64,000 bases of DNA from Octopus vulgaris. Lineage: Eukaryota. The stretch lies in the NCBI GenBank assembly GCA_951406725.2, contig OX597832.1, positions 69,440,001 to 69,504,000 on the forward strand, in the 5' to 3' direction. The position numbers were made by a program, and so were the translations under genes. Positions 6,525 through 62,249 of the stretch are shown here, piece by piece (positions within the stretch are counted from its first letter, which is position 1; the number at the start of each line of letters is the position of its first letter). The notes below the pieces were generated by a model. It did no database searches. It had not been told where the DNA came from and saw only the letters and a program-made list of their open reading frames with translations.

Positions 6525-6726
6525 TATATATATATATATGTGTGAGTGTGAATATATGTAAGTATGCATGTAAGTATGTGTGTGTGTTTAGATAATATAT
6601 AAGAGTAAATTGTGCAAACCTTATGTGGTACATGACTCAATTGGTTAAATAGAGTGAGATACACGTGAACAGACCAGCTAGAGGTAAAATTCAGACTTTA
6701 GAGTTTGGCAAAATATAGGGGAGGGA

Positions 6727-7680: not shown

Positions 7681-7730
<50 letters not shown>

Positions 7731-7733
<3 letters not shown>

Positions 7734-8569: not shown

Positions 8570-9360
8570 ATATCTAGTTAAATTGATTCACAAAATCAGT
8601 TCCCTTTAATTTTCCCTCAGATTGCTTTCAATTTCGGTGTATCAATGCAACTCTGAATTTTGATTACGACCAACCAATTACTTTATCTCGTGAATTAAAG
8701 AATCAGACGTTATTTAGAATTAAAGCTGGGAAAATTTGGGTAATTTTAGCCTATCAGCAGACTGCGAGGTATTAACAGCTTGTTACCATGACAACCGCAC
8801 GTTGTGTTGTGGTTCATCTCACCCGCACGTTGTGCTGTGTTGATTCTTCATACCACGAGGTTTACTTCACCACGTGTTTTAATAAAAAATGAAGGACACA
8901 TTAAATAATGTTGCCCTACGTCTTCAATAAAAATATAGAATGGCTCATTCTGGCCTGACCTGGGTTTAAACTGAAAGGTATTCGCTGCAACGAATGTAAA
9001 CACAGATAAACTTCACGAAATATGTATAAAATTTATGAAAAATTTTAAAGACAATTGACGGAAATAAAATTCTAATTGATAAATATGAATTTTTTTATCA
9101 AAGCAAAACATACGGGTGAAGTAAACCTCGTGGTATGAAGAATCAACACAACCCAAGGTGCGGTCATGGTAACAAGCCGTTAATACCTCGCTGTCTGTTG
9201 ATTGGCTAAAATTACCCAACATCAGATCCTTTAATTTACGAGATAAAGTAAATGGTTGATCACAATCAAAATTCAGAGTCGCATCGATTCACTTAAATTC
9301 AAAGCAATCAGAGGAAAAATTAAAGGGGGCTGATTTTGTGAATCAATTTAACCAGATCAG
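8570..9360. mobile_element. Foldback/MITE-like element with ~270-320 bp inverted arms
   Basis: 8570-8890 is the diverged reverse complement of 9090-9358 (e.g. gttaaattgattcacaaaatcag / ctgattttgtgaatcaatttaac; gttgattcttcataccacgaggtttacttcacc / ggtgaagtaaacctcgtggtatgaagaatcaac); TA runs on both flanks. Confidence 0.85.
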
Positions 9361-9447
9361 TGTATATATATCTGTGTGTGTGTGTGTGTGTGTGCGTGCG
9401 TGTATTTCTTTATGTGTGTGTGTGTGAGAGAGAGTGAGAGATGGGGG

Positions 9448-9500
<53 letters not shown>

Positions 9501-9501
<1 letters not shown>

Positions 9502-9897
9502 TAGCAGTATCGCCCGGCGTTGCTCGGGTTTGTAAGGGAAATAACTATATAAGCATTTTTAGAGAGTTATAGGCAAAATATAGCAAAAAAATGCATTAAA
9601 AATGAAAAAAAAATTATGGTAAATTTTTTTTAAAATCGTTGACTCATCGTAGACATTTTTAGAGAGTTACTTCCCTTATATAATAGCAAAAAATGCATTA
9701 AAATGGAAAAAAATTATGGTAAATTTTTTTTTAAATCGTAGACTCATCGTAGACGCGCGCTAATACCCAGAAGGGCTCGATATGAATCACGACTATAAGA
9801 AACCCGCTTTTGGTTAAACTGCACCGCAAAATGTGGGAGTAGTTAGGAATCTAAATCGTAGGAGACAGACACACAACTTGACTTTTATATATAAAGA
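9501..9897 (-). mobile_element. Complete non-autonomous Helitron
   Basis: The minus strand starts TC(TTTATATATAAAAG) and ends with the hairpin CCCGAGCAACGCCGGG followed by CTAG. Inserted between A and T with no TSD; ~100 bp internal tandem duplication (9553-9653 / 9654-9753). Confidence 0.88.
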
Positions 9898-10469
9898 TAT
9901 ATATATATATATATTTATATATTTTTACATACGCACATTTTCTCCATTCTCTCTCTCCCCCATCTCTCTCTCTCTTACACACACACACGAGGAAGTTGAC
10001 AGAATTAGAACCAAACCTGGATCTCACTAAAAATTCACTGGGAAGACAGCAGAAGACAAAGCACCTGCACTCTGGTTGTGTTGTCATCGAACAGATGATA
10101 AATGATAAATAGCTTTGATACATTAATGTGTGTGCGTGTGTGTGTGTGTATGTGTGTGTGTATATGTGTTGTGTGTGTATGCGGGCGTGCACTGTAGAGT
10201 TGAAATTTTTGATATTCATTGAATCAAAGTGTTTGTGTGTATATAACGAGAGAGAGAGAGAGAGAGAAAGTACAACGAAGATAATCAACAACGTCACATA
10301 TCTTGAAGTGTAATTTGTTTTTAAATGATAGTTGTGATTTATCTCGCATCTACCAAACGTTCTCCCAAGTCTGTTTCATTTAAGATAGAGCAGAGCAGTT
10401 TATAAATTATTCTTGAGTCGAATAAACGTTTTCTGTCTTCATGATAAATAACAATTTCTAATATATATA

Positions 10470-10800
10470 TTTGTGAAGCTTGCTTTCCAAGCGAATAACT
10501 TTGGGTTCAATCCCGCTGCGCGACACTTCAGGCAAGTGTTTTCTATTATGGCATCAGGGTAGAAAAGGTTTTAGTGGATATGGTAGAAGGAAACTGAAAG
10601 AAGCTCGTCGTATGTGTGTGTGTGTGTGCGTGCATGTCCTCTCCACCACTGCTTAGTTGTTGAGTGTTTGTGTTCCAGTATTCTTGTGGGTTGGCAAAAG
10701 AAACCGGTAGAATAAGCACAATGAGTAAAACCGTAATTCATTAGGGAGTTACCCCAGCATGGGCGTAGAGCAATGACTAAAGCAAGGAAAAGCTAAAAGA
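10470..10800 (+). mobile_element. Degenerate SINE family 1
   Basis: gggttcaatcccgctgcgcgacacttcaggcaagtgttttcta..ggtagaaggaaactgaaagaagctcgtcg, internal (TG)n, and ccagcatgggcgtagagcaatgactaaagcaag tail. Confidence 0.8.
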
Positions 10801-11335
10801 TTATATTTATAAATATATATATAGAGAGAGAAAGAGCGAGAGAGAGGGGGTGGAGGGAGTGAAAGAGAGAGAGAGAGAGAGAAAGAGAGAGTCAGCAGGT
10901 GATATCCAGAGATGCTCATTATAGAAATTACGTTGTAGTGCTCAAATAATTTGAACTTACGCCTCCGAAATCTTTCTCGAGGAGGTCAATGTCGACGGGG
11001 TGAAGAGTGACCAACAGAAATTCAGGCTGATATAGAAATAGCGATGCAAATAAACAAAAGAACACGCTTGGGCTTATTGTATAAAATATACATTCGTACA
11101 TATATACACGTAAAATTGAAAATATTCAGATGAACATGCAAGTATAAGCATAAATATGTTTATATATTTACAGAAAGGTTTTATAGACAAGCCCATATAC
11201 ATATATATATATACATATATATATACATATATATATATATACATATATATATTCATAATACATACATACATTCACAATGCATCCATCCATCCATCCATCC
11301 ATCCATCCATACATACATACATACATACATACATA

Positions 11336-11960
11336 GGAGGGGAAGTCAAAAATTATCCGCGCACTCGTCATAACATATCTTTATGATTGTCACTCTGCCT
11401 TCTGTACTAGAATGCTGATAGTTGGTCCTATTGTGATCACTTCGTCCTGGCTTTACAGTATAAGCATGGCCGCTCCACCAGCAGCGTGCACTAAACAAGA
11501 ACGAAGTGCGCCGATCCGATCAACAGTGTACGATCAACAACAAAATATAGCGCTTTGCTGCCAGCAATTCGCACCAAACGCCGAAGACTATCGTCGAAGA
11601 ATATTTTGTTGTTGCATGACAATGCAAGCCCACACACGGCTGCCCAGACCATTGAAATACTTAACCAATTAATTTTTGAGGCTCTAGAACACCCGCCTAC
11701 ACTCCAGATCTCGCCTCTTCCGACTATCGTATATTTGGACCGCTCAAAGATGGTTTACGATGTCGTCGATTTCCTACCTGTGAAGATGTGAAAGAAGCGG
11801 TGCATAAATAGTTGGAAGGAATACGCAAGCTCTTGTGGACAGCTGGACCAAATGCATCGAAAATGGAGGAGATTGTACAGAAAAAGGACATACTTGTTTA
11901 TCCCCTGCTTTTGTGTAAACACTGGAAAAACAGGAGCGCGTATAATTTTAGACTCTCTCG
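11336..11960 (+). mobile_element. Internally deleted mariner (DD34D) transposon
   Basis: TIRs ggaggggaagtcaaaaattatccgcgc / gcgcgtataattttagactctctcg flanked by TA. Transposase remnant ILLLHDNASPHTA..LEHPP(Y)TPDLASSDYRIFGPLK. Confidence 0.92.
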
Positions 11961-12244
11961 TATATAGATTGATGCATACACATACGCACATATACATATT
12001 CTTTTACAAGGGAATGGTTGGCACTGATTCCAAAGTTTCGGCTTGAAACAACCTCGAAGCTACAGTTTGTTGGGTTTCTAGAAGTATACATAAAACAAAC
12101 ATATATACATACATATGTATATATGCATGTATGTACGTATGTATGTATGTATTTATGCACTATGTATGTATGTATATGCAGATTTTTATGTTTTATGCTT
12201 GCATTCTCATGCATATAGTTGCATATCTAGACATGCTCATATAT

Positions 12245-13100
12245 ATTTAAATGATAAACTTTTGGGTCCAGTGATGGCTTGGATCTGTAGTCTTCAAATT
12301 AGTTTTCTCCTTTCTGGTCCTGAGATTGGTATTTAGGCAGCGTGTTACATATCCCAGGGCCCCAATAATTACAGGCATAAACCTGAACTTCTAATCTGGA
12401 TAGACTTCTCAACAGTTCAGTATAGGTGTTCTCTTTCTCATTGATCTTCAGATTTAAGTTAACATCCACCTGGCAGCTAATTCCCACAACTGTGCACAGT
12501 ATCTCTTTATCCCAAATCATTATCTTAGGTCCGTTGTGCTTACATTTTATTGAGGTCTTCACTGGGACATTCCACCAGTATTCCTTTTTATTATGAATGG
12601 CTATGGCTTCTACCATATTGTGGATTCTTATTTCTTTGTCCTCGGTATTATCCTTCTGACGGATTTCATTATAGTGTTCGAGCTACAACATCATGTCTCG
12701 TCAGTAGATAATACCATAATGAGATTTTCGGACAACTTCTTATGATGTGGGTAATATCTTCAGTGTGAACTCCACAATGTCTGCATCGGTTGTCACATTT
12801 TACGGCTTTTTCTGCATCTCTATCCCTGTTGTGCATCAGGTATTTGTTTTGATATTTCCTTTTCATGGATTGCAAACGCAACCCCTTCAATGTGGAAAGT
12901 AGGAATCTGGCTATTGATCTATGATAAACTGCTTCTAGTAACATATCTATGCATAGTCTTCTGCCCATATAGGCTCATCCTTTCATCTGATGAAACGTTG
13001 CGGTAGAGTCGTGCGACTTCTTTGGGCATGTATTATAGGTTATCAGACAAGGAATGTTGCTCAAAGTCTTTCCAAGTCTTATGATGTTATCAGCCTCATG
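12245..13100 (-). mobile_element. 3' fragment of an R4/Dong-type (restriction-like endonuclease) LINE
   Basis: CRHCGVHTEDITHIIRSCP (CCHC knuckle), RHDVVA, and KEYWWNVPVKT..HNGPKIMIWD..VGISC..EKENTY (decayed PD-(D/E)xK region). Confidence 0.85.
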
Positions 13101-13405
13101 TATACATACTTAGTGAAGGGATGTGTGTGTATATGTGTGCGCGCGCGTGTACACGGAACACACATGCATGTGTCAGTATATTTCTATGTATGTATATAGA
13201 AAGAGACACAAAGATAGATGTGTGAGTAAACTTTAGCTATTGCATTTACATTATTTATTTCGTAAGTATAGGCAATTAATTATTTTGATTAATTATCTAA
13301 TTTGTCTGAGGAACTACTGTCTGTTTAGCTGCCCACGTTACTGTTACAAGTGATTTATGTGATTGTTGTTATTGTTATCGTCATTATTATTATTATTATT
13401 ATTAT

Positions 13406-16400
13406 TCAGTAGTTTTATTTTTATAGCGTGCTTTCACTTCACTACCGAGCGCAGCTCTGTGTGCCTTACGTATGTGCTGTGATTTGTTGTGATGCTCTGA
13501 TGGTTATTGTATGGAAAGTGTTCTGCGTAGGATGTGTGCAGTGCCTAGTAGTGCAATTTTCTGTGTGTTATATGTGTTTGTAAGTCCTGGTGTTTTTGTT
13601 ATGTATTTGTCTGAATATTTTTTATCATGCCTAATGCACCTACTATGATAGGAATTATTTCTGTTTTTAGATTCCACATTCTGGTTACCTCTATTTCCAG
13701 GTCTTTGTAGTTTGAGAGTTTCTCCATTTCTTTTAGAGACACGTTGCCATCTGCCGGTATTGATACATCAATTAGAAAGCACTTTTTTTTTCATGATTTC
13801 TGACAACTATATCTGGTCTGGTAGCCTTAATTTCTCTATCTGTGTGTATCGGCATATCCCAGAGTATGGTTGCTTTTTCGTTTTCTGTGACATTATCTGG
13901 TGTGTGCATATACCATCTTTTTTCTGTTGTTATTCCATAATGTTGGCGTAGCTTCCAGTGTATGTAGGTTCCAACTCTGTCATGTCTGTGAACGTCCATC
14001 TCCACATATTCTGCAGTTACTTGTTATATTTCTTTTCATTACATGTTTTTGGTAATTTCTGGTGGGGAAGCTTTGATCTTGTGCTGCAATTAAAAATCCC
14101 TCTGTCTCTGCATTGAGTCCTGAGCTTCTCAACCATTGCTGGGATTTTTCTTTGTCTATTTCTTTTGCGCTTAGTTTAGTCCAGTATTTACCATGAAGGG
14201 GCTTTTCTTGCCATCGTTTTATCATGGATCGTTGCTGTTCTATTTTTAGTTTGGATTTCATTTGTTTTATAGCTTTTGTTGTTTCTTCTTCTTCTTCTTC
14301 TTCTTCTTCTTCTTCTTCTTCTTCTTTCTCTCTTCTCTTCTTCTTCTTCTTCTTCTTCTTCTTCTTCTTCTTCTTCTTCTTCTTCTTCTTCTTCTTCTTC
14401 TTCTTCATATTTATTAGGTGGTATGATTTCTTGTTTGTATTTGTCAGCTTCCTTAAATACTGAGAACAGTTTTTTGTTTTGCTCGTGTTTTGCCGCTATT
14501 TGTATCAGTTTTCCTTCCTTCTGAAGTAGATATTTTTGCAGTCCTATGGTGGTTATTTTATAGTAGTTTTCCAGCTGTATAAGGTATCTACCACCTTCTA
14601 TACGTTGTATATATAGTCTTTCTATGTCAGATTTTGGGTGATGCATCCTAGATCCTGTCATTATTTTTCTTGTTTTCCTATCTATTTTGGTCAGTTCATT
14701 TAGTGTCCAGTTAAGGATATTGTAGCTGTAACTTATAACTGGGACAGCTAAAGTGTTAATACCTATTATCTTGTTTTTAGCATTGAGCTCTGTTTTTAGT
14801 ATTGATCTAACTCGTCTATAATATTCTTTTTTATTTTCTCTTTCATTTGTGTGTGTTGTGTCTTATCTAGTTCATGGATTCCTAAGTATTTGTAAGTTTG
14901 GCTTTGGTCTAGTTCTTTTATTTCATTGGTTTTATCTAGTGTGATGTTGCTACTCTTAACTAGTTTTCCTCTTTTCATGGTTACTTTGGCTCATTTTTCT
15001 AATCCAAATTTCATATCTATTTCTTTGGTAAATCCATGAACTGTCTTTAATAGTGTTTCCAGCTGTTTGTCATTTGCAGCGTATAGTTTTAGGTCATCCA
15101 TATATAAAAGGTGGCTGATCGTTTTGCCGTAACATTTATATCCGCATCCTGTTCTATTTAGCATATCAGATAGAGGTGACAGTGTCAAGCAGAAAAGGAG
15201 TGGAGAGAGCGTGTATCCCTGGAATATTCCTCTTCTAATGGGGATGGCTTTGGTTTTCATGAGTCCCGTTTTTGTTTGGAGCTGTAGCACTGTTTGTCAT
15301 TTATTCATAGAGTGCCCGATGAATTTTATAATTGTTGGTGCTACTTTGTTAATGGCTAGTGTTTCGAGGATCCATGTGTGGGGGATGCTATCAAACGCCT
15401 TTTTGTAGTCGATCCAGGCCATACTGAGGCCTTTCTTCTTTCTGTGGCTGTCTTCAGTTATGGCTTTATTAATCATTAGTTGATCTTTACAGCCATATGA
15501 GCCTTTGCGGCATCCTTTCTGCTCTTCTGGAAACAGGTTGTTTTCGTCCAGGTGCTTGTTCAACCTTTGCGATATCACTGCAGTAAATGCCTTGTACATT
15601 GTAGGGAGACATGTTATTGGTCTGTAGTTTTCTGGTTTCGCTGTCTCATTTGATTTGGGAATTAAGATGGTTTTCCCCTTCGTAAGCCATTCAGGCATTG
15701 TCTCTGGCTCTGCTAGTATGTTGTTAAAGTTTTCAGCCAGCTTTTTGTGCATTCCTGTTAGATATTTCAACCAGAAGTTGGGGATCTTGTCATGCCCAGG
15801 TGCCTTCCAGTTGCTTAGTCTTTGCAGTGCCTGGGTGACCTCTTCAGTTGTCATGGGGGTCCAAAGTTGCTCAGATGCTGAGTTTGTTGTTTTAATACTC
15901 CTTTTTTTTTGGTTGTTCGTTCCCCGGCCATATTTCTCTCCAGAATTCTTCCACTTCTTCTGCCGTTGGTGCTGCAGTGATTTCTATTTTATTTTTGCCA
16001 AGTTCTTGTTAGAACTTTTTGGGTTGGAGTTGAACTTTTTGTTTTGTTCAAAAACGCGCTGGCGTTTCTCGTACCGGCGGATCCTTTGTGCTTTGGCAAG
16101 GATATCTTGCTTCAGCTTTTCTTTTATCTCAGGTAAATCTTTTTCTGTGATGTTATATTTACGGAGTATTTTTGTTTTCTTTTTGTTGCTCAGTAGCGTT
16201 GATTGTCTACTGATTTCATTAAGGATCGATAGATCTTTTCTCATTTTTTGTATTTTGTTTTGGATGTTATTTATCCACAGGATTTGTTTGGGTGGTGGTA
16301 CTCCTGTTTGGATGGGTTTGAGTGAGTATCCAGCTTCTTTTGTGGCTACAGTGGCTGCTGCGTATACTGAGTCATTTAGCTCAGTGATATCACTTTTTGT

Positions 16401-17187
16401 TTCAGTGGCAATTAGTTCCGTGACGGCTAAGTTTATGCTGTTTATAATTGGTGTTGTTGTTTCGTCTATTTTGATTTTTGGGAGGTATGGTCGGTGGTCC
16501 ATTTTGAGCTCAGTGGTTTTCAGTTCTTTGATTAATCTACTTTTTATATTATCATAATCATTAGGCTCCCTTTCGTTGTTTCCAGGTTTTAGATTTGTGT
16601 CGCTTTCTTTCTTATTTATATGTTTGTTTGCCGTGTTTTGGCTTGTTGTTTGTCGTGTATTATTATGCATCCTTACGGTCTGGTTTGTTGTTTTTTGTTT
16701 ACATCGTGTTTGTTTAGAATGTTACGTTTGTCTTCGTGTTTTACTGTTTCAGTGTTTATATTATCGGGCATTGTTGTGTGGCTTCTATCTACATTTTCCT
16801 GGTGTATTTTTTTCTTTTAGATGTTCTATTTCTATTTCTGATATTTTTTTTTTGCGTTGAGAATGTATCTTCGTACGTTAGCTAGTTTATTAGGGTTCAT
16901 TGCTGTATCCAAGTCTATAATTATGTTATTTTCCTTCCATATTTTATATGTATGTGTTGTTGTGTTTTCATTTTTTGAGTAGAGCACTGCTGTGAAGTAT
17001 GCGTGTAGGATAGAAATGTATTCCTCACGTGTCCATTTATGTCTTTTGGGTTTTATTTGCGGGACATGAGGAACAACGCCCGCCCCATTATTTTGACGGT
17101 CGTCATTTTCGTAGGGTACCGGTCCGTTTATTTCTGTTGTCACATTGTTTTGTACGTGTAGTTTTTCGTACATTTTGTGTTGTAAGT
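13406..17187 (-). mobile_element. Near full-length R4/Dong LINE (RT + restriction-like endonuclease), disrupted ORF, inserted in (TAA)n
   Basis: ORF pieces: RHKWTREEY at the N-terminus; NWKAPGHD, NYRPITCL, EQKG, WIDYKKAFDSIPH, RGIFQGYTLSPLLF, HLLYMDDLKLY, YKYLG; AAQDQ, CRICG, HRHDRV, ILWD, RPDIV. (TTA)n flanks at 13384-13405 and 17188-17257. Stops and frameshifts are present. Confidence 0.96.
14283..14407 (-). repeat. (GAA)n tract inside the Dong ORF (poly-Glu)
   Basis: (TTC)n on the + strand with one ttctctcttctc interruption that shifts the frame. Confidence 0.95.
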
Positions 17188-17209
17188 TTTATTATTATTA
17201 TTATTATTA

Positions 17210-17250
<41 letters not shown>

Positions 17251-17257
17251 CATTATT

Positions 17258-17406
17258 CGTTTGTAACACAGTGTAGGTAACAGTGCACCGGAGTCTTTAG
17301 TCATCTGTCAAGTTACAACAAAGACCTCAGACAGATAATACTTTCCTTAAGATGTGCGCTTTGTTTAATAAGGCTCCTTTTTGAACGACATCAATCTTGC
17401 ATGGGA
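17258..17406 (-). mobile_element. Short 3' end of a second R4/Dong family
   Basis: Minus strand PCKIDVVQKGALLNKAHILRKVLSV* plus a short 3' UTR ending in (TAA)n. Confidence 0.8.
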
Positions 17407-17441
17407 TTTCAATTGTTAATATTATTATTTATATTATTATT

Positions 17442-17790
17442 CTCACCACTATTCTGTTTCTTCTTTCAATTTTGTTTCCATTTCTTGCCGGGTGTCTTCC
17501 CGACACCTAGGACAAAGAAACCCACTGTTTATATTGGTAGACCACTAAAATCAACACACCAGACTTTCACTTACAATGTCAAGTTATGTGATAGAAAAAT
17601 AAGAAAGAAAGAAAGAAAAAGGTTAAAATGAAAGTAGAAAAAACGAAAATTAAACAGAAAACCAAGAAATTAAAGGGAAGAAAAAGATAGAAAATTCTCG
17701 GCGACAATGTTCTTTTCAATACGTGTGACGTACCAGTTGAAACAATCGTTTGCACTTCACGCATGGATGGTAAGCAAGGGACCAACATCA
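17442..17790 (-). mobile_element. 3' end of a third R4/Dong family
   Basis: LVPCLPSMREVQTIVSTGTSHVLKRTLS C-terminus; 3' UTR with GGTGTC-ttccc-GACACC hairpin; TTA-rich spacer. Confidence 0.75.
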
Positions 17791-17808
17791 TCATCATTAT
17801 TATTATTT

Positions 17809-18790
17809 GATGAAATCTCTCAGTTTATTTTGCTGGTTAAGCGTCAGCTGTCCACAGCCAGCAGACTAAGGTGACATTTGTTTACAGGTCATGCTTCAAG
17901 AGCCCAGCGAAGAATTATTGCAGTTCCAAGCAATGCTGACTTTTGTCGGTGTTCTACCTTTACATAAATATGTATCAATCTTTTGAGAGCCATGTTGGTA
18001 GTCGAAAGCTGATACTTCCAAGTCCACCAATTACTGTTGGTATCTTGTTTCCTCATTGACTACAACCTTCGTATATCCCACTTCAAATCGCCATAGGTGT
18101 TCAGCTTTTCTTCCTTTTTCTTTGATCCTGTTGCCATTGGCACATTCTATGCCGATTATCATGCATGTTTTTCCTTTTTCTGATGTTTCGTCAGGTGATT
18201 GCACTGCATCATTGCATCGCAGAGGATTTTGCAATTTTCATTCTCGGTGACTCCTCCTGGGGCATTCTCATAACGCGATTTGCTCTTTGTAGGCTGTGAT
18301 TTCCACAGAGCTCTCAATGGATCATACTTGCTACATTGCCATGACGTCTTTTGTATACGTGTCGTGCCAATTTCGGGCATTCTCTAATGATGAACCATAC
18401 AGTTTCACACATCTCACCATACATTCTTTATTTGTTGCTGTCGGTAATGTTGTCATTATTTTATTATTATTTACTTTTTATCACAGGTTTTGTTCGAACT
18501 CCTGGACTCTTGCATGCCTAGCGGGTTTGCTGCCTGCAGCCTACAGTACCATACTATCCATTCTTTTCAGCTATCCAGTACATTTTCAGCTATCAGTACA
18601 TAAATGTGCCAAGGAGACAAACCTTTTGTTACAGTTCTACTGGGTACTATTTCAATTTCCTTTATATTCCTCTTGATGCCTTCTTAAAATGTCCTCAAGG
18701 ATTCAATAATAATTGGCACTATCTTCACCTTCTTCATTTATCATAGCCGGGCTATTTCGTACTTAAAAGGGTTATATTTATTTTTCGCCT
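17809..18790 (-). mobile_element. Decayed 3' portion of a fourth R4/Dong family
   Basis: EYKRRHGNVASMIH, ENAPGGVTENENCKILCD, KTCMIIGIEC, VEHRQKSALLGTAIILRWALE. Confidence 0.82.
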
Positions 18791-20191
18791 TCCTTCTTGA
18801 TAATTCGTGGGTCAAAAGGGCACGCAACATATTACTGACTAAGAGTAGTGCATGCAATCAAAATGACACTAAGGTACAAATATACGAAGCCCAATATATG
18901 CATCATGACTACCTATCTGATTAGGGTATAGCAGACGCATGCATCACAACAATTTGTACGCGACATGGTGATCGCATATCAAGATATGGAATTTCATCAG
19001 TGCTCGTTCATCAAAAAAAAAAAAAAATGGTGTCCACATCCGTCTAATTATGCAGTGTTCCTTAAAGAGATGTCAGTAGATATATTCTGTAATATATTGT
19101 GTATATAACACTGAAATAGAACACCCAGAACGAACACTATTTATTAATATAAAGTATTTCTTATCCTAATGGTAAGTCAGTAACAGAATCATAGAGATCC
19201 CTGAGCAGCTACCAAAGATTACTGTTCCTTAAAAAGTCGTTGGACTGAGAACCTCTTCAGTTGTTTCCACAGGTTTAGCCGCGTTTCAACACTAACTGAG
19301 CAGCCCTCTCATGAGTGGTATTTAAATCATGCCCATCATAACTTTTAATAAACAGAGACTACATTATCCAGATTTTACCCCTAATTTTTATTTTTAAATC
19401 GTGATAGAATGGCGGTTGAGAGAAATTCTGTCCGCTATTTCAAGCAGATTAAATGTGCTTCTAAATAGCAGCTCACTTTCTTTCCTCCTCATCTCTACTC
19501 TAACAAAGCAACATTTTCCTGGTAGAGATATTTGTATCTTAAAACTACAGGAGGGTGAGTCTGAACTTAATAAATGTAGATGCACCGCTACATTACTCAT
19601 CACTCTTCATTCTTCACCTAAACAAACAACAAAGATAGTAACGGGTTTGTAGTAATGATAGGATATCGAAACTAAATACCTCGACATAATTCAGTTACAA
19701 ACATTTACCATTTGATCCCACCGTGGGGTTAACATTCACATTAATCACTTTAGTGTCGATAAATACATCTCAGAAATATACTGGATCCTTTCAATTGACT
19801 GTAGTCCTTTCTTGAATAAATTTCCCCAGAGACTCAGTTCAAAGAAGCCATTTGTACGAATATCTCTCACTACTTCCGTCGATAAGTCGTAACTCCGCAG
19901 GGGCAGCCATTTTGTTTTCGTATCAAACACAATTCAAATAATTTGGTAAATATTTCTGGCGTCCTCCTGCTGTTATTAGCTCATTGTATTGTATATAGGA
20001 ATGATAAATAGCATAAATAGCAGTGGGAGTTTCTTCGTTGTTAAAGCAATCTGAATGTAGCCAGTAAAAACACATTTAACACTAAAATGAACTTCACAAG
20101 TCGTGCAGTGTGATTAACTTTTAAATGACGTTTATAAGTTATCTATCCAACAGAATTTCACTTTATCTCATTCGGCAGCGCTACAAATAAA

Positions 20192-20193
<2 letters not shown>

Positions 20194-20280
<87 letters not shown>

Positions 20281-20442
20281 GTATGTATATATATATATGT
20301 ATGTATATATATATGCATATATATGTATACACATATATACACACAATATATTACACACACATATATACACACATATATACACACATATCTATATAAGCAT
20401 GTATGTGTATATGTATGTATGCATCCATGTATGTATATCTTA

Positions 20443-20491
<49 letters not shown>

Positions 20492-20760
20492 CATATACAT
20501 ATATAAGTTTATAAACAAGTAGAATATATATATATATATATATACTTTATATATATATATATATATACTTTATATATATACATATATATATACATATATA
20601 CACATTTTATATATATACGTTTGTATCTAGTGGAATATGATTGGACATGTATGGATGTGTGTGTGTCTATATATGTATATATATATATATATGGGTGTGT
20701 ATATACATGTATATTTGTGTGTGTGTATATATATCTATATACATATATATGCTGTAGATA
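20194..20760. repeat. (TA)n and TA/CA-rich low-complexity block
   Basis: Direct reading. Confidence 0.95.
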
Positions 20761-22259
20761 CATTCATCTCTTCAACAAGCCATTCACCCATCACACATAT
20801 ATACAACCATGCATACATATATCCATACATAAATGCATAGAACTACCAAACCTACAAACAAAGTAAGAAATTTGCTCATTTTGAATGTGCCACAAGGAAT
20901 TAAGTTAAGCTTCCTTCACACAACCGGTTGCACAGTTAAATGTAGAAGGATCACTTGTGAAGTTTTGATTGATTTCACTCTCTGCTAAATCTCCGGCTGA
21001 CGTGTGATGATTCATTTCATAATGCCATCACGGCTTCATATATACATACATACATACATAGTATATATCTACATGTGTGAATAAAATGTACACACACACA
21101 CGTATATATGTGTGTTGTGTATATATATATGCTATTGAGTCTCACACACTCCTGTCTCCTTCACACACACACATTCTCCTAAAGCTCATACTATCCCCTT
21201 CTCTTTCTCATCCTCTCTCTTTCTTTGTCGTTCATTCTCTCTGCCATCTGCCTTGTGTTTATGTGTTTCCTTTTCTCTCTCTCTCTTCTTATTTCCTATT
21301 AACACTTAACACTTTCTAAAAGTAATACCATCAACATCAATAACAAAAACACGAAATCCAGCGCTTGGGTCCCAATTACGGACATCCCCACCACCACGAC
21401 CACGATGAGTTGTCATGTTCCCCAGCTTCTCATCTATTTCGTTCATTATTCGCGCCTCTTTTATTTCCTTATTCTTTCATCTCCCGAGACGTCCTCCTCC
21501 TCCTCCTCTTGCAAGTATCTTTACTCTTAGAGTTCCGCAACAAACTTCTTCTCCACACTCTTCCTCATTTATTAATGAAACGAAAAAAAAACTTTATTCC
21601 ATTGTCATCCGTAGATTTATCTGCAATCATCTTCTTTTTCCTTATTCTAATCGATATCTTCTCTTTATGCTTCCCTCATCGTCGCCTTTATTTCCTTAAT
21701 TGCAAATTGAACACGCTACTTACTCCATCATCATCATCATCATCATCATTATCATCATCATCGCCCCTCTCCCCCGCCACACACTGCCAGTGCATCGCCA
21801 ACGCCAGCAGTACATTCACCATCTCCACCGATGCCATCATAACTACCAACAACCACTACAGGACAGCATTATTGATGACCTCCATACTTGTTGGTAGACC
21901 TGCCAGAAATAGCAGTTAAAATGTCATCAGATGACATGCTGCTTTCATAAAAACAGGACACATCAGATAATGTCATTAATATACACAATAGTTAGGAAGA
22001 ATTTTAAATATCATGATCACGGCTTCATGGCTACAACACGTTTGATCATTAATCTACTGGATCAAGGCTGACCTGGTGTTAAACAACAACTACAATAACG
22101 CTATCTCCGCAACATCTCCATCTCACCATCTCAGCATTGCTGCCCTCTCCAATTCTTCATCTTTTCTCATCCTCTTTGCAACTTCCACATTCTTCCTCTT
22201 CTTATTGCATCCCTCCTGTATATCTTCTAAATATGTCGAATTAGCAGATCCGTTACAGT

Positions 22260-22735
22260 ACTGGATCGAATGGCTTGCGGTATTCGTAATAACCTAGGAT
22301 CGGAAGTAGCTAGGTTCAAATTTCGCCGAACTCATCTTTGTTTTTCATAGTTAAAAGGCGAAATCATGGCAGTTAGAAGATCCTTTTGCAACAACACAAT
22401 TTCGCGGCACCTCGGGCAAGTGTCTCGTTCCATAGTCTCGGGACGATAGATGCCGAGTGAGTGAATCTGGTAGACGGAAAATGCGCGGAAGCCTGTCACA
22501 CATCTATCTGTCTATCTATCTGTGTGTGTATGTGTGTGTGTGTGTGTGCATTTGTACTCCATAACTTGACAATCGGTGTTTGTTTGTTTACGGCCCTGTA
22601 ACCTGTTCCAAAAGAGACAGATTTAATAAGTATCAGACCAGAAAATAAGTACTGGGATCGAAACCCTTTTAGGTTGTGTCCAAGGTTTGTCATAGAGCAA
22701 AAACCGGAACAAGTTGTAAAGGAAACAGAAAACGA
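22260..22735 (+). mobile_element. Degenerate SINE family 2 head followed by SINE family 1
   Basis: ggttcaaatttcgccgaa (family 2), then cggcacctcgggcaagtgtctc..gaatctggtagacggaaa and ttgacaatcggtgtttg..aagtactgggatcga (family 1). Confidence 0.7.
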
Positions 22736-23226
22736 AACATCAACGACTTTTGAGGTCGATAGAAAAGGAAATGTACGAATGGAGGGTGTTTGGTAGATTA
22801 GAGAAAAGTTTAGAACAATTAAGATTGGATTGCTCGTGATATCTGGGTCTACACGTTCTGAGTTTAAATCCTCTCTTGTTACGGAGAAACGGCGAAACCT
22901 CTGTCAGGACTCGCAACCAACAGGTAACATCAACAGTTTGAGAAATAAGCAGAGTATAATAAGAAAAACTTCAAGAATGCAACAGCGACAGTTTCCTTAG
23001 TTCGATCTTTGGATCAAATCTCACCAACATGATGACCAACAACCACCCACAAACCGCCACCACCACCACCACTACTGTGTGGGGGACAACCACACAGCTC
23101 TTTCGTTCCTTAAAAGGCACAGGTAAAACAGTTTTGCTTTGGCTGTTTTGTTATGACTTCTTCCAGAAGTGAGATTCCGTGTGATGTGGCATATTCTTCC
23201 TATATGCTTCCTGATTCGAAAAAATC

Positions 23227-23981
23227 TCCATGTCCAGGATGCGAAATTTTTTCCCACGAGAGTTTCGGGCCCCAGTAATGTACTCATTTGCATAAAGCCA
23301 ATCAGAGCTCACCTTGTCAAGTTAACAAATGTTGGCATTAAAAATGGCGACCTCCGATTATCAGCATACAATTTACAGATGTGTATATCTTTAATATTTT
23401 CCGTGAATTTTTTACGACCCCAGTTAGTTATAATAAGTAGATCTATAATTTACTACTAATAATATAATAGTGCTCAGCGAAATTTTTTAGTATTCACATA
23501 TTTTCTTGACTTTTTTAATTTATATTTTCTGTTTGGTTGCCAGCGTCAATTTTCTGTTCGAATTGATTTCATGGTTAGTGTAATGATACACTTTTATAGG
23601 CTAATTAATGAAGTGAAAGTAAGTTTCTCTATAAATCAATAAATAGTTATTAGTAATTAAAGTTTGAAAATTTGGTAATTTTAGTCAATCGTAAACCACA
23701 GACACATTCAAGTTTTCCTCTTTTAAATTAGCATAAACATTTACATGAAAGAAAATTACAGGAGACATAACACGTATTGTTTACAAATATAGACAACACG
23801 TTCTAGACAGAGAAGTTGCTGTCTGCCAGTAGAGAGGGAAAGAGTAAGGAATGCACAGTGCTGACTAGAAAGGAAGAAAGGATAAAGTTATCTCAGCTCC
23901 GATTGGCTGTATGCAACTGAGTTCATTACTAAGGTCCGGAACTCTTGCGGAAAAAAAAAAATTCGCGTCCAGGACCATAGG
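23227..23981. mobile_element. MITE-like element with ~80 bp imperfect terminal inverted repeats
   Basis: gtccaggatgcgaaattttttcccacgagagtttcgggccccagtaatgtactcatttgcataaagccaatcagagct (23232-23309) is the diverged reverse complement of 23895-23975. Confidence 0.8.
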
Positions 23982-24415
23982 ACAAGAGTAACACTAACGA
24001 TTAAACACCAAAGTTACCCACAATGCTATTTTCATCAATCTCTTACTAAAATTCGCAATGTATGTGGGTTTTTTTCTATTTTTGTGAATTTTCTTGATCT
24101 TGTTCGTGTATAATGTGTGCGAAGGTCTTGTTTTGCATTTTTGTTTCGAGAGCGTGAAACAAAATTTTGCAACTATTTTTTAAAAGTAGAGAACGTGAGA
24201 AGGAAATCTAATTTATTTCAAAAAACGAAAAACCTATTTTTTATTTCTTTGTTTAAAGTATAAATATGAAATGTCAGTTTTTCGAATGTATCTACATGTC
24301 AGTAGATTTAATGGTACACTTTTCTATTTGGTAAAAACCTTTTTCTTCGAGGAACCATTTCAAAACATGTCCGAGCAGGTCAACAATAAACTAAAGTGAC
24401 AACAAATTATCATAA

Positions 24416-24531
24416 TGCAGGAGTAGCTGTGTGGTAAGTAACTTGCTTACTAACCACATGGTTCCGGGTTCAGTCCCACTGCGTGGAAAGTGTCTCCTAC
24501 TATAGCCTCGGGCCCGTCATATATATATATA

Positions 24532-24572
<41 letters not shown>

Positions 24573-24791
24573 ATCTATGTCTATGTTTTTCTTCCCCAAC
24601 ATCACTTGACAACCGATGCTGGTGTGTTTAGGTCCCCGTAACTTAGCGGTTCGGCAAAAGAGACTGATAGAATAAGTACTAGGCTTACAAAGAATAAGTC
24701 CTGGGGTCGATTTGATTCGACTAAAGGCGGTGCTCCAGCATGGCCGCAGTCAAATGACTGAAACAAGTAAAAGAATAAAAGAATAAAAGAA
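24416..24791 (+). mobile_element. SINE family 1 copy with internal (TA)n(TG)n
   Basis: gcaggagtagctgtgtggtaag..ccgggttcagtccc head; ..ccagcatggccgcagtcaaatgactgaaacaagtaaaagaataaaagaataaaagaa tail. Confidence 0.92.
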
Positions 24792-25140
24792 TCTGTATCA
24801 ATAAAACAGTTCGTTCCAATCTACGCAAGACTAGTATAAAGAAATTCCCGTAGGAAAAACGCAGAGGAGGAGAGAAAGTGAGACATATAGAGAGAAAAGA
24901 GAGAGAGAGACAAAGAGATAAGGAGGGAGAGAAAGAGAGGATTCTTAGAATCAAGAAGGCGTGCTGTGTTTTTAAGAGTATATCTGACTTGTGTCTTGAT
25001 AAATAAACTAACAGGATTAGTGTATGGTGTCTTTATGCAATTATATGAGTGTGTGTGTGTGTGCGTGTGTGCGCGCACGTGTGTGTTGTATGTATGTATG
25101 TGTTTGTGTATGTATGAGAGTGAACGCTGGGTTTGATGAG

Positions 25141-46730: not shown

Positions 46731-47071
46731 CTATATAAGAACGTGTTAGAGTACAGTATAGAGCTCGTCCACCTTCAGAACAGACCAGTATAGGAAATAT
46801 TCCTATATGCTTCAAACGATAAAATTGGGCTTTATATTATATTTACACACACACGATATATTTATACAAACAGAAACATAGATACATACATATAAGTACA
46901 TATATATATACTCATATACACATACATATATGAACGCATACACATACATATCTCTATACTTGCATACATATATATATATATATGCATAATTCAGGGTAGC
47001 ATTACACAAGTTCATCATCAACAACAGCAGGAGATGTCTTCAAAATTCTCAATTGTGTCTGTTTCTGTACA

Positions 47072-47666
47072 TGATGGCTGCCCCCTCGTTATCGAGTATG
47101 GCCATTGCACGAGGTGCTAAGACCTTTACTGGCAATAGTCAGCTGAGCTGTAGTTGCAACTGGGCTTCATATACTTTTGGTATATTGTTTAAGTTCTCCT
47201 GCTGAATCACACTCCCTTCCACATGTCTGACAGATATGATTAGCTTGGTGTGTAGCACCACCACCAAGAGCGGCCTGGTAGTCAATCACCGGTCTCGCTT
47301 TATGGCTACGAAGATGACTCTTGAGTCCAGCTTTACTGAGGCAGGGTCTTGCACAGACACTGCTTGTCACCGTCATAGGAAGACTTTTACCATCTGGAAG
47401 TGCAACAGCGATGCCCTTCCTAACATCCCTCTTTACTTTCTCATGCGCAACTCGAGATTTCTCAAAAATAGCTGTCCCCTCATGTACAATCCTTCTCCAC
47501 CTGCTCTGGTCAATAGCTATGCCCTCCCATGTGTCAGGAGAGATACTAGCATCTTTCAAGGCAGCCTTCAGCAAGTCATTAGACCACTTTTTAGGTTAAT
47601 GTGGAAGGTCTTTCTCCTTTAGCTAACTCTCCATAAAAGAGTTATTTTGGCATCCTTGTCTTTCAT
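47072..47666 (-). mobile_element. 3' end of an RTE-clade LINE with C-terminal C2H2-like fingers
   Basis: LKAALKDASISPDTWEGIAIDQSRWRRIVHEG..CARPCLSKAGLKSHLRSH..CQTCGRECDSAGELK; 3' UTR tcgataacgaggggcagccatcat. Confidence 0.85.
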
Positions 47667-47746
47667 ATACGCGTGTTTCGGAATTAGATCGGTATAAAGA
47701 ATATAGAATTATACTTTACCCAATCATTTTCGTTCATCAGCATGGG
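47664..47746 (-). ncRNA. Type I hammerhead ribozyme with extended stem II
   Basis: Minus strand: cccaug CUGAUGA ac gaa aau gauugg g uaaag uaua auuc uaua uu cuuua ua ccgauc uaa uuc c GAAAC acgc GUA uaug. The sister arm reads GAAAC gcgc GUA cauggg. Confidence 0.75.
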
Positions 47747-48322
47747 ATTCCAACAATATTAAATAATAAATATTAAATTCGAAGGCACTGGAAAAATTGA
47801 ATATATCTCTCCACCTAACGGTATGAGACATATCATATTCAGTGTTAGTGCCGCCGAATTCAAAATACGAATGAGGTTCATCACCTTCCCCTGCCCATCA
47901 GCGCGTGTCGTCAAGTAAGATACTACAGAAAAAAAACTGTAGTTTGTTATCAGGGAGAAAAGTCCCATTATCAATAATAACAAAGGGTAAAATTAATTAA
48001 TTAAGAAGTAATCAATAATTTCACCAAGTAGAACTCGGCATGAAAAAAGACCATTTCACGGTAAACTTAAGTAATGGTTGGGTAAAGTATAATTCTATAT
48101 TCTTTATACCGATCTAATTCCGAAACGCGCGTACATGGGTAACCAGATATGGATTGATTTTCGTTATTTTTCCTCTCTGCCTGTGTAGATTGTTTTCAAG
48201 TATTTTGTTTTTTCTGGGAGTCCCTTTTTAAAGTAGAAGAAATAACTAAGGTTTTTTGACTGCTATTTCTAAACTTCGGTATGTGGTAAAGCAAATCTTT
48301 GCTGAACCCTAATTATAAAGTA
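47664..48322. mobile_element. Inverted Penelope-like pseudo-LTR pair
   Basis: 47664-47727 is an almost exact reverse complement of 48073-48137; both arms carry hammerhead elements. Confidence 0.75.
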
Positions 48323-48323
48323 T

Positions 48324-48695
48324 ACTCTCTCTTTTACTCTTTTACTTGTTTCAGTCATTTGACTGCGGCCATGCTGGAGCACCGCCTTTGGTCAAGCAAA
48401 TCGACCCCGGGACTTATTCTGTGTAAGCCCAGTACTTATTCTATCGGTCTCTTTTGCCGAACCGCTAGGTGACGGGGACGTAAACACACCAGCATCGGTT
48501 GTCAAGCAATGCTAGAGGGACAAACACAGACACACAAACATATACACACACATACATATATATATATACATATACACGACAGGCTTCTTTCAGTTTCCGT
48601 CTATAGCAAAAGACACTTGCCCAAGATGCCACGCAGTGGGACTGAACCCGGAACCATGTGGTTGGTTAGCAAGCTATTTACCACACAGCCACTTC
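48324..48695 (-). mobile_element. SINE family 1 with internal deletion
   Basis: tttactcttttacttgtttcagtcatttgactgcggccatgctggagcaccgcc..gcagtgggactgaacccggaaccatgtggttgg..ccacacagccac. Confidence 0.92.
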
Positions 48696-49551
48696 TATAT
48701 ATATATATAAATGTATAGCTTTATGCATATATACTTGATTCCGTACCCACATACGCGCACACACATGCGTATAGATAGATAAACTGATAGTGAGTTAGAT
48801 TGATCACTGTACCACGAATATACCTATATATGCACAAATATCAACTTGGCTGTCAGTCCAACTATCTTCATGTATATGTATCTCAGTGTGTAAAGATGTG
48901 TATGTTTGATTAGCTGTACGAATGAGACACATATGGGATTTAAGAGTTTTTATTTAAAGATTATTATGCAGAGTTCATCAAGAGAAAATACACAATGTGT
49001 AAACAGAAACAGAAAAAAGCTGACGCCACACAAAAAAAAAACAAGTAATGTAAAATTAATTTTAAATTAAAACTTCTGAAATTGCTATTCTCAGTTGTGA
49101 GTTTTCCATTTCTGAATCAACGAGAACGGAACCAACCAAACTCTTATTTAAGTATGAACACATGATGATGCATACATAGTGTTCATATCCTCTATGTAGT
49201 GTCCACCAACATAAAGAATATTCTTTATGCACCACAGATGATCCGCCATCAAGACTGGTCAGCGAAATATCTTAGAATGCTGAGACGAAAGACTAACTGC
49301 ACATCATATAGATTCACGATAGCATTACTTATCTTGGTTGGTGTTACACAATAACTCGAGGTTGTTTGGAGTTATTCCAGAAGGTATTTTGAAACATTTC
49401 AACAAACGTTCCCATGTATGATTGCAAAACAATTCGTTGAATGTAAAATCCAGGTCAACAGAAGAAAAGCGTTATGTCTTGACTGGATCTTGAAACCGTT
49501 AACTCTGAAGGTGTCCGGCTTTAAACTTTAACAAATTTTTAAGCATTTCCA

Positions 49552-49552
49552 A

Positions 49553-49601
<49 letters not shown>

Positions 49602-49622
49602 TAGAGAGAGAGAGAAAGAGAG
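49552..49622. repeat. (GA)n microsatellite
   Basis: Direct reading. Confidence 0.95.
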
Positions 49623-51258
49623 TGATGCTCACACGTCTCCAGTCGTTTTTGTTCTACTTCGATCTGAAGAGGATCGTCTCTTGGCCTGGGTAGGCACCTC
49701 TACCCAACTAACGATTCATCTCTAGACATCCGTAAACAGGAATTATTCTCTTCTTATTTTCTATGACTTTCGCAGTGCATTTCTAGGAAGACTCTTCTGT
49801 CCTCCCCCACCCACCAGTTTCCGAACGAAATTTCTTGTCAGTTTCCTTTTACTCCTCTGTTCTCGCCAATGACAAGTTCCAACGATTTGTTGTTCTGCCA
49901 GATGAGTCACATATCTTACTTAGTGGTAATGCGTGATGGCGACTTCACAAAGTTGTAGAATCGGATAAAATGTTTTGTGTTATTTGTTACAGCTCATTTT
50001 GAGCAGAGTTCAAATCCGGTTTAGTTAACTTCGAGATTTATTCTTTCATAGTCGATAAATATAATTTAATTTCGTACTATCTCAGGGAGGTGGATTTGAG
50101 GAATTATTAAAGCATTGGTTAAGAGGAATTATTAAAGCGTTGGTTAAGATACTTTACTCTATTTCTCTGGCGCTTTACATTCTGAATTCAAAATTGTCTC
50201 AAGACCCTGATACCTAGGGCTATGCAGCCAACCACAGGAGTACACACTCAACTCACAATCAGCCATCGCAAATAGGCAATAGCATGATGATGCTTCATTC
50301 GTCAACAAGTTGTTGTTTTTGTTGCAACTGTTTATGGCTGCGTAGTTGATGTTTGGTTGTTGATGATAGTGATTTTAGGTGAGGTGGTGACGGAGGTGAA
50401 AAAGGTATAGTTACCAAGCTGTTCTGGTTGCCTTCTTGCATCACCTCCGATGCTTACACTGACGGAAGTGACATATTATCTTTTGTAGCGGTTGTTACTG
50501 GCGCTAACTGTGATATTGGTTGTTGTAGTGCGGTTGGTGTCGTTGGTGTCGGTAGTGGAAGTGACATTACCTGTTGCTGAAGACACGCATCTAATGGAAG
50601 CGCTAAATGCTTCGCTGAGAGTGTAAAAGTTATGGTGCTGTCACCGACTCCGTCTCCACCGTGAAAAGCATTGATTCTGTTATTCATGTCATTGATGTTG
50701 TTGCTGGTTTCGTCCGCATCTTCACCGCCATCAACGATGTCGATGGTGGTGGTGTTGCTATGGTGATGCGGCTGCTGCCATCATCATGGTAATGTTGTTA
50801 GTGTTACCGGTGGGGATGGCGGCAATCATCGGGGGAGTGAGTGGTGGTAGGAACGATGTTGTTTAAGCTTCCTATGACTCGGACCACCTCACCTCTCAAC
50901 ACTGTTTCCACCATTGATGCCATTATTGATTTTTAGAATTTTCAAAGCAAACCGCTTTTAGTTAATTTTCTCTTTTATTTTATCCTTTGAAACGGTGTAA
51001 AAGAGGTACTGTCAACCTCTCCCAGCACTCGCTGTCAGTTCCGCCAAATAAATAAATAACAACGAGAGAGTTAACAATGAATTCCCTATTCAACCAAAAG
51101 ATGACAATTCTAACAAAACTAGTGGAATGGCAAAAGTACATGGCAAATTCTCCAGAAAAAACAGCAACAATAACAATAGTAATAGCTCCTCTCTTATTTT
51201 GCCACTGGGACCAATTTATACATGCAACAAAGTGCAGGGCTATAAAGACATGTGGCAA

Positions 51259-59964: not shown

Positions 59965-60153
<189 letters not shown>

Positions 60154-62249
60154 CTTCAGCAAAAAAGAATGGGCTGAGCTGAACAATATAAAACAAGACA
60201 AAACAATAACAATCAAAGAGGCCGATAAAGGGAGTGCAGTTGTCTTAATGGACACGACATTTTACATAACTTTAGTACTATCTATGTTGGAAGACACACC
60301 ATATTATGAAAAGGCACAAAACTACAGTCAACAAAAAATAATGAGGGAACTAAAATCCATGTTAAACCCATACAAAGAAGGGCTCACCGACAAAGAATAT
60401 GACTATATGACCAATTTCACAAGTAAAACCAGCCAATTCTACGGTATTCCTAAGATACACAAAAGTGAGAAAATAAGTAACGCATTCAAGATAGCCACAG
60501 ACAAAATAATTAAAGTCCCTAATCCTAATGACCTCAAATTGAGACCCATAATAGCAGGTCCCGCATGCGAAACCCACCGCCTCAGTAACTTTTTAGACAC
60601 CCTGTTAAAACCACTCCTTAAACATGTCAAAAGCTATATAAGGGACGGCTTGGATATGCTCAATCACCTGCCTAATACTATAAACAAAAACACCCTACTA
60701 GTAGCCTTCGATGTAGTCAACCTCTATTCCAATATCCCCCACAACCTAGGAATAGAGGCAATTCAATTCTGGCTAGAGAATCACGCCAACGAATTCCCAC
60801 ATCGCATAAAAAAGAATTCGTGATAGAAGGGGTTAAATTCATCCTGGAAAATAACTTCTTGGCCTTCAAAGACAACTTCTACCGACAAAAATCGGGGACG
60901 CGAATGGCCCCCTCCTTTGCCAACCTCGTCATGGGATATCTAGAAATCAGTCTGTATCGTAAGGTTCTAGAAATATATGGCAGTCCTTTCTGCCTCTACA
61001 TAGAAAACAACTGGAAGAGATACCTAGATGACTGTTTCATTCTTTGGCATGAAAATATAGAGAAACTCAAAGAATTCCAAGCAATTTTAAATGGGCTGGA
61101 CGTAAACATCCAATTCACGATGGAATATAGCCAGCAACAACTCCCCTTCCTCGATATCCTCATTAAGAAATCTAATAATATAATAGAAACAGATTTATAC
61201 TATAAGCCTACAGATTCTAAGCAATATCTTCCATTCAATTCATGCCACCCCAGACACACCAGAATGAATATCCCCTTCAATCTAGCAAAAAGGATATGTA
61301 CTATAGTTTCTAATGCAAACGCTAGAGACACACGACTACAAGAACTAAAAGATACCCTCATCACCAGGAACTACCCACCTTCACTTATTGACATATGCAT
61401 TCAACGTGCCCTTCAACTCAACATCCAGGAACTCAGACATCCCAAATCAAAGAAAAATTTACAACCAAAAGCCTTACCATACATCTCCACACACAACCCT
61501 CTCAACAATGAAGCCTTCGACACCATCCTCCAAAACATACCCCTGCTAAAAAAAAAGACCACAGAACGAACACAATCCTCCAAACACACACGATCATAAA
61601 AAGCAAGAGACGGCCTAAATCTATGAAAAGTCTCCTAACACAAGCCCGAATACGCTCTTCAACACAGAAACCGACAGTAAAAAAATGTAGAAGACCCAGT
61701 TGCGGGATATGCGATTATCTAATTGAGGGATCAGAATTCTCCTTCAAGCAGGGTCAACGGTTTACTGTGAAAAGCAACTTCACATGTGCTTCGGAGAACC
61801 TGATATACACACTAACATGCTCTGGGTGTCAAGAGCAATACATAGGCCAAACAAAAAATAGTTTGCGTAAAAGAATGGCCCTGCACAGATCCCAGATAAA
61901 AATTCCCCAAAACAGAAAAATAGCATTCAGCCAGCACATAGATATTTGCGCCAACAACAAAACACCAAGCTTCAGGATTTTCCTCCTCTACCAATCCAGG
62001 GACGATACAACCTCGAGCCAACGAATAAGTAAAGAAACTCTCTTTATTAAAAAATAGAGGCCCTTTCTGAACGGGTCTATAACAAACGATATATCCACCT
62101 CGGCTTTAGAATAACACAAATACACACGCAAAATTACATTCCTAAGAATCCATTAAAAATCAGCCCCAATCACAGCTATAACCCATAACGTGCCAACTTT
62201 AAGCCATACAACACCTCACTACTTCCACTCATTCACATTCCCCCTTCTC

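Follow-up and report, generated by a model that had tools for sequence, protein, structure and literature searches.

The paired hammerhead motifs near 48 kb in a 64,000-nt stretch of Octopus vulgaris DNA (the window, which reads as animal DNA rich in AT and laden with microsatellites) very probably belong to a single dead insertion, inverted head-to-head, of a Penelope-type element that is non-coding, ~596 nt long and either pLTR-derived or retrozyme-like; its arms would be two successive hammerhead copies, each clipped at a different end. The first-pass annotation had seen a split ribozyme whose arms retain complementary halves. That reading is not supported, since truncation explains each loss, other loci have the same geometry with other break points, and the catalytic arm bears changes of the decay type. 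5' truncation accounts for the absence of CUGAUGA in the plus arm, and the end of the minus arm at the RTE/TA target accounts for that of CAUGGG (see below). The bounds first assigned (47664..48139) placed the motifs correctly but stopped short of the element, which extends to ~48323. The features are collected in Table 1.

Table 1. Features of the inverted insertion and its flanks (positions in the window)
Feature	Position	Strand	Basis
LINE fragment, 5'-truncated, decayed, C-terminal, with two C2H2-type fingers; target DNA	47030..47666 (left edge approximate)	-	ORF 47167-47595; weak zf-C2H2 matches
Outer left junction	47664..47669		TATA 47666-47669 and ATG 47666-47664 (minus) fit element and target alike
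Minus arm, type I hammerhead	47664..47753	-	motifs and helix I pairing
Minus arm, UAUG past the cut site	47667-47664	-	motif reading
Minus arm, GAAAC-ACGC-GUA (helix III, loop ACGC)	47679-47668	-	GUA triplet at 47670-47668
Minus arm, 54-nt helix II region without the 10.1-11.1 pair	47733-47680	-	folding
Minus arm, core CUGAUGA	47740-47734	-	motif reading
Minus arm, helix I 5' strand	47753-47741	-	includes CCCAUG 47746-47741
X', low-depth, hairpin-rich, 5' of the hammerhead in element orientation	47754..47966	-	depth 2-16 thousand in X1/X3
Tail-like piece, ~108 nt, between two preferred 3' ends	47967..48075	-	joints 48073/48323 and 48075/48321; loose ends 47967, 48075, 48323
Inner inversion junction	48073..48075		3 nt common to X start and plus arm
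Plus arm, 5'-truncated hammerhead copy	48076..48146	+	distal helix II, GAAAC-GCGC-GUA, CAUGGG, internal loop, CCAG
Plus arm, GAAAC-GCGC-GUA	48122-48133	+	cut site after 48133
Plus arm, palindrome ACGCGCGU	48125-48132	+	motif reading
Plus arm, CAUGGG	48134-48139	+	partner of CCCAUG
Y, U-rich, 3' of the hammerhead, to the main 3' end	48147..48323	+	depth rise; (TA)n loose ends
SINE-like interspersed repeat, then (TA)n; right flank	48328..48697	+	copies at 6074-6520 and 24419-24782

Evidence on the family comes from contigs of four public runs (X1, X3, X5 and X14, from three organisms) placed on 47580-48335 at a likeness setting of 82. The sides of a joint are just 20-44 letters long, and repeats can generate such joints; contig depth is not copy number. 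All contig-based figures are given among the matches listed (15 of 37 joints, 32 pieces and a small share of the loose ends, beside 582 others), and the family variant counts are lower bounds, with 59 variant rows outside those counted. The family sequence is present in X14, a run only guessed to be RNA, and contigs give no RNA ends, strand or level.

The arms form an inverted repeat (47664-47728 and 48073-48137) identical at 62 of 65 sites (E 5e-24), with 344 nt between them. With the plus arm as reference, the minus arm has a G>A or C>T at all three differing sites (47724, 47674 and 47667), a divergence of 4.6% (95% interval 1-13%); at 47724 the plus-arm letter accounted for 70-100% of depth in the four runs. 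The likeness of the arms agrees with the earlier description of the insertion as young, but its youth is only moderate: it departs from most of the remaining family copies at a minimum of 12 of 660 sites.

The motifs reported for the minus arm (CCCAUG, CUGAUGA, stem II and GAAAC-ACGC-GUA) and for the plus arm (GAAAC-GCGC-GUA, CAUGGG and the palindrome) were found where they had been claimed, and CUGAUGA was absent from the plus arm. The minus arm has the hammerhead core elements CUGANGA, GAAA and an NUH triplet in order (47740-47668), and in a type I hammerhead descriptor search of the 64 kb it was the sole match. Judged by sequence, the arms are type I hammerhead parts with a palindromic, dimer-type helix III. 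CCCAUG and CAUGGG are true pairing partners, as had been proposed, and the pairing even continues past an AAU/UAA internal loop into four more pairs (47753-47750 with 48143-48146). Helix I with its loop and outer stem arose only when one arm paired with the other. Among 3550 control windows, 23, self-complementary ones included, were as stable, and the outer part alone was no better than chance (39%). The variants 48143 C>T and 48146 G>A preserve outer helix I pairs, and 48145 A>T (17-43%) would break one, barring a compensating change. Internal loops of 3x3 nt, AAU facing UAA, occur in both helix I (47746-47753 / 48140-48146) and helix II, where hammerhead loop-loop contacts are expected.

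The minus arm had been taken for a mere half of a ribozyme. Its UAUG still allows a 4-bp helix I (G-U, U-A, A-U, C-G), but this helix was seldom formed on folding (P<0.01); the helices of the minus arm folded alone seldom form. The claim that stem II folds well stands for the distal part, a modest fold (z -2.14; 5 of 200 shuffles equally good), but not next to the core, where the 10.1-11.1 pair is missing and A and C lie opposite one C. The G10.1-C11.1 pair is described as highly conserved in the available text of PMC4209133. A 1-nt deletion at 47732 occurs in other family copies (contigs). Helix III is a perfect palindrome in the plus arm (self-duplex -13.3 kcal/mol) and has one mismatch in the minus arm (-8.1 kcal/mol); a 2-nt deletion at 48126, in the helix III loop, was present at ~8-18% of depth in other copies and, by eye, would leave a shorter palindrome. 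At the cut site of other copies C replaces A at 48133 (GUC, not GUA) in 19-57% of depth, and only A or C was found there among the listed variants; both GUA and GUC are cleavable triplets under established hammerhead rules. An Rfam scan of 47550-48300 gave no hammerhead match at E<=10, and the long helix II, which the Rfam models miss, would amount to a minor variation in structure; over the whole window, the 150 of 265 Rfam rows listed included microsatellite-driven miRNA matches. The ribozyme at the locus is probably weak or inactive; for the family, the prediction is a type I hammerhead that depends on dimers.

In other copies the two blocks of the insertion are joined differently. The opposite-strand joint 48073/48323 was found in seven contigs of X1 and three of X3, and the joint 48075/48321 in four contigs each of X1 and X3 and two each of X5 and X14. 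Loose ends behind 48323 carry, in all four runs, the start of the minus-strand spacer, and behind 48075, those of X5 and X14 show how the plus block ends. These joints and the matching loose ends mean that elsewhere Y (48134-48321, plus) runs into X (48075 downward, minus), so that the tail-like piece lies directly 3' of 48321 in other copies. The family order read from these sequences is likely hammerhead-Y-X-hammerhead, ~596 nt from cut site to cut site, and the locus is one unit plus ~58 nt of the preceding unit, flipped at 48075/48076; a tandem of complete hammerheads is absent from it. The 596-nt unit has a GC content of 0.34, 57 TA dinucleotides and no ORF of 80 aa or more, i.e., it is non-coding, and a blast search found no second copy in the 64-kb window.

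Both sides of the hammerhead are multi-copy in context: depth was 2212, 6391, 812 and 52 in the four runs for the bin 47736-47761 on the CUGAUGA side, and 6600-24800 in X1 and X3 for 48141-48151 on the CAUGGG side. At 48079, just within the start of the plus arm, depth was 46 in X1, 355 in X3 and 240 in X5, and the X1 value is comparable to that of single joints (30-61). The simplest reading of these depths is that the family hammerhead is contiguous. We infer an intact contiguous hammerhead in the family, assembled from such contexts rather than read letter by letter in any listed contig; none of the 15 joints listed out of 37 links the core side to the CAUGGG side.

The 596-nt unit might alternatively be local, if the locus were a three-piece Penelope insertion in which X' and the hammerhead are the 5'-truncated 3' end of an autonomous element placed after the tail of a preceding copy; the arms would still be clipped pLTR hammerheads. 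Partial tandems are standard for Penelope-like elements in the available parts of PMC8557442, and the boundary between X' and the tail coincides with the preferred 3' end 47967. We consider this unlikely. Variants at 47962-47966 appear in contigs of multi-copy depth (~240-270 each) and lie 31-39 letters from the contig ends; X1 and X3 both have a deletion joint (47934/47976); and no ORF-like reading was found in X' or Y. From those variant rows and that one joint we infer that X' and the tail are continuous across 47967 in other copies.

Two further candidates in this region were rejected. X (47747-48075, minus) folds far better than shuffles, with several hairpins (z -4.96, against -3.15 for the other strand and 0.33 for Y), but conservation of its structure is unsupported: the 22 listed variants do not spare the fold, and 151 of 300 random sets were as mild in a single-site test. 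An intron 3' of the plus arm (GT at 48139 and AG at 48187-8, by eye) was dismissed, as more than 90% of depth is without that AG.

The distribution of depth and of copy ends in the family is of the kind seen in Penelope-type mobility. Depth climbs ~100-300-fold from the core to 48256-48281, and in 47970-47995 it is 30-190-fold that of the bin 47736-47761. The main 3' end is at 48323/48324, where 34 contigs of X1 and 25 of X3 continue past 48324 as loose (TA)n ends; a second preferred 3' end at 47967 has AT-rich, mutually unrelated flanks (agreement 0.50-0.54). These two frequent ends are ~108 nt apart, and further ends occur at 48047 and 48296-48310; the cut site is not among the frequent ends listed. 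The family thus shows heavy 5' truncation, and its targets are AT-rich or (TA)n. Head-to-head junctions elsewhere account for 10 of the 13 same-strand joints listed, each at a depth of 30-61; two of them start at 48075, as here, and one at 47731, right after the core. A contig of run X3, ~85% alike, crosses the inner junction (47978-48126), so another locus may have a fold-back junction of this sort.

No ORF with RT and GIY-YIG was found in 46900-50200, so that the locus holds at most a non-autonomous derivative or a pLTR fragment, and by its behaviour we file the element as a non-autonomous, Penelope-type hammerhead element with a pLTR- or retrozyme-like module. It is of a known kind, and the family member is probably not yet catalogued. 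A decayed Penelope-type ORF in three frames lies at 60150-62057 (plus), with a DKG motif, a CxxxxCxxC linker, a GIY-YIG match (E 1.6e-4) and weak RVT_1 matches (E 0.04-0.05); it is Neptune-like by its linker. A TA/CA microsatellite precedes its start and a long (CAT/CTT)n tract follows its end; the hammerhead descriptor had no match near it. As a partner element it was rejected, having no DNA likeness to the unit (best E 0.13). An open stretch near 15104 (minus) has a reverse-transcriptase-like YMDD motif and is probably another LINE fragment.

The insertion lies against a LINE fragment which, by its motif, is presumably RTE-like. Look-alikes of the LINE peptide (Atlas) are eukaryotic, most commonly from Mollusca, and unnamed. 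The 3' flank of the LINE is a (TA)n run near 46968-46984, and loose ends behind 47658 show that other LINE copies go on with different, in-frame LINE sequence. On the right, a SINE-like repeat, which looks octopus-like, belongs to an abundant family and sits between the 3' end of the element and the (TA)n run. TATA is present at both outer ends of the insertion, and there is otherwise no clear TSD.

Because TATA and ATG overlap at the left junction, two end points fit the minus arm, the cut site itself (after 47668) and a position 4 nt further on. If T47667 is target DNA, the arm ends at the cut site and the arms differ at 2 of 61 sites; if it is a decayed C, the end is 4 nt past. An arm end at the cut site is moreover a post hoc choice, the locus having come to attention owing to an arm ending there. 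In a possible but less probable course, the LINE arrived later, or a later deletion took place, and the minus arm was thereby shortened to an end 4 nt beyond the cut site via ATG microhomology, with T47667 as a decayed C. The ATG at 47666-47664 is, by eye, the LINE's own codon and also matches the next bases of the element, a C>T here would match the other two arm differences in type, and the right flank is, by eye, without the upstream LINE part. Such later clipping is, however, harder to reconcile with the blast result, which found no remainder of the element beyond the LINE 3' end, and with TATA at both outer ends and (TA)n in the LINE's other flank, by which the T may be target DNA.

The favoured origin, a single inverted insertion of truncated copies, would begin with a template longer than one unit (a tandem transcript or a circle) and a break in TA-rich DNA next to a truncated LINE; copying would have started at either end of the break, putatively by a Penelope RT/GIY-YIG protein acting in trans. 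The first cDNA would start at the main internal start (48321-48324), pass through an uncut or re-ligated hammerhead and stop in helix II; the second would start at or just past the cut site of the next hammerhead and run up to the first priming point. The two cDNAs would then be joined over the 3 nt of microhomology, as in twin priming (PMC2837659), and later decay would have left two or three G>A/C>T changes in the minus arm. On this view both blocks share the motif because the template exceeded one unit; the upstream copy loses its 5' part and the downstream copy its 3' part, which yields "complementary halves" without selection.

The inversion could also have arisen by fold-back self-priming, or by dual priming on two RNAs, instead of twin priming on one template. 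Self-priming has been proposed for head-to-head structures in the text available of PMC3846280, an 8-nt palindrome stands at 48065-48072, and the left arms of several family joints begin below 48075. These routes appear rather unlikely here, given that the left block begins exactly at the end of the right block in family order (48075 after 48321), also at two other loci, and that the palindrome belongs to the family sequence, as loose ends show, and was not made by the junction. Under either route, and equally under a three-piece insertion, the verdict on the arms would stand.

That the arms might work together was also suggested in the earlier reading, in which sense and antisense RNAs could assemble the ribozyme in trans. 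The arm RNAs do pair in silico. The arms lie head-to-head, however, so that RNAs made from each would diverge from the spacer and would not be overlapping sense and antisense RNAs. In the cofold model the minimum-free-energy structure of the two arm RNAs would have the topology of a trans hammerhead (-39.0 kcal/mol; helix I P 0.95-1.0, helix III P 0.59-0.70), a result that follows from the arms being copies of a dimer-type ribozyme. Bidirectional pLTR promoters have been suggested for rotifer elements, according to the available part of PMC3846280, and the occurrence of the family sequence in the guessed RNA run would suit transcription. Yet a functional split ribozyme, with divergent spacer transcripts assembling in trans and cutting the plus-arm RNA after 48133, is very improbable. 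It would require divergent transcription; the CUGAUGA arm is without the conserved 10.1-11.1 pair, and the minus-arm G>A yields an A-C mismatch in the shared helix III and damages the palindrome. The plus-arm homodimer binds nearly equally well (-11.3 against -11.8 kcal/mol), the same strands would be available from any intact family copy, and truncation points differ freely between loci. A read-through RNA would fold, as had been foreseen, into dsRNA, with a computed duplex of 63-66 bp.

Several described systems come close to the locus; statements on published work refer to the parts of the cited papers that were available. In Penelope-like insertions copies form partial tandems or have an inverted, 5'-truncated copy next to them, with a tail and TA targets as further traits (PMC8557442); head-to-head is the commonest inverted form (PMC3846280), and in vitro there are two internal RT starts, both DNA strands are extended and cleavage is not required (PMC11167929). 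With the EN+ Penelope-like complex insertions of these three papers the locus shares head-to-head truncated copies, a hammerhead near the 3' end, two preferred 3' ends, a strong 5'-truncation gradient and TA-rich targets. Unlike them, it has no ORF, one of its arms stops at the cut site or close to it instead of at a standard end, and the tail-like piece is ~108 nt long, against 30-40 bp published for the tail between two 3' ends. Truncated Penelope hammerheads of Schistosoma likewise occur in pairs on opposite strands, 100-700 bp apart, with palindromic helix III and dimers, and an unpaired base after A9 (PMC4209133). The octopus form differs in a helix I of 6 bp plus internal loop, a helix II region of 54 nt and a helix III of 2 bp plus tetraloop, of canonical rather than minimal type. 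Like metazoan non-LTR retrozymes, as defined in PMC7229834 and bioRxiv 10.64898/2026.07.22.740005, the unit is non-coding, low in GC, a few hundred nt long and has a type I hammerhead; its 596 nt falls in the 51-972 bp range of the latter source but exceeds the 150-450 bp of the former, the locus has no intact tandem array, and most family copies appear as short 3' stubs. With L1 twin-priming inversions (PMC2837659) the locus shares opposite-facing blocks contiguous in the template and junction microhomology, and it differs in the absence of poly(A), in the enzyme and in the same motif being present in both blocks.

Giant squid has 235 Rfam hammerhead-1 matches in the accessible text of PMC6962438. 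The literature searched was mostly outside subscription papers and outside the supplements of PMC4209133 and PMC8557442 (these list hammerheads and might include the family); in it we found no octopus Penelope hammerhead family and no natural split retroelement hammerhead. Pattern scans found no family copies in viral_contigs or genome_contigs; a metagenome contig (L001) was discarded as a chance match, its likeness being confined to the 20-nt search pattern.

The insertion illustrates how partial-tandem inversions can mimic a split ribozyme, and the relic 12 kb away shows that Penelope-type enzymes existed in the genome, with no sequence link to the unit. On the role of hammerheads in Penelope elements, the available parts of two papers state that cleavage is dispensable in vitro (PMC11167929) and propose cleavage together with circularisation (PMC4209133). 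If arm ends in the family cluster at the cut site, a genome-wide count would inform that role. More speculatively, and with a low probability in our estimate, the insertion could be the fossil of a self-cleaved RNA template, reverse-transcribed from its hammerhead-cut 3' end (after 47668) and from the family's internal start on the same RNA, longer than a unit or circular; the family would then be an undescribed 596-nt retrozyme-like element of molluscs, with a ~40-nt helix II extension beyond an internal loop that faces a matching helix I loop. Were this true, a cut-site-primed insertion would be in vivo evidence on the role of Penelope hammerheads.
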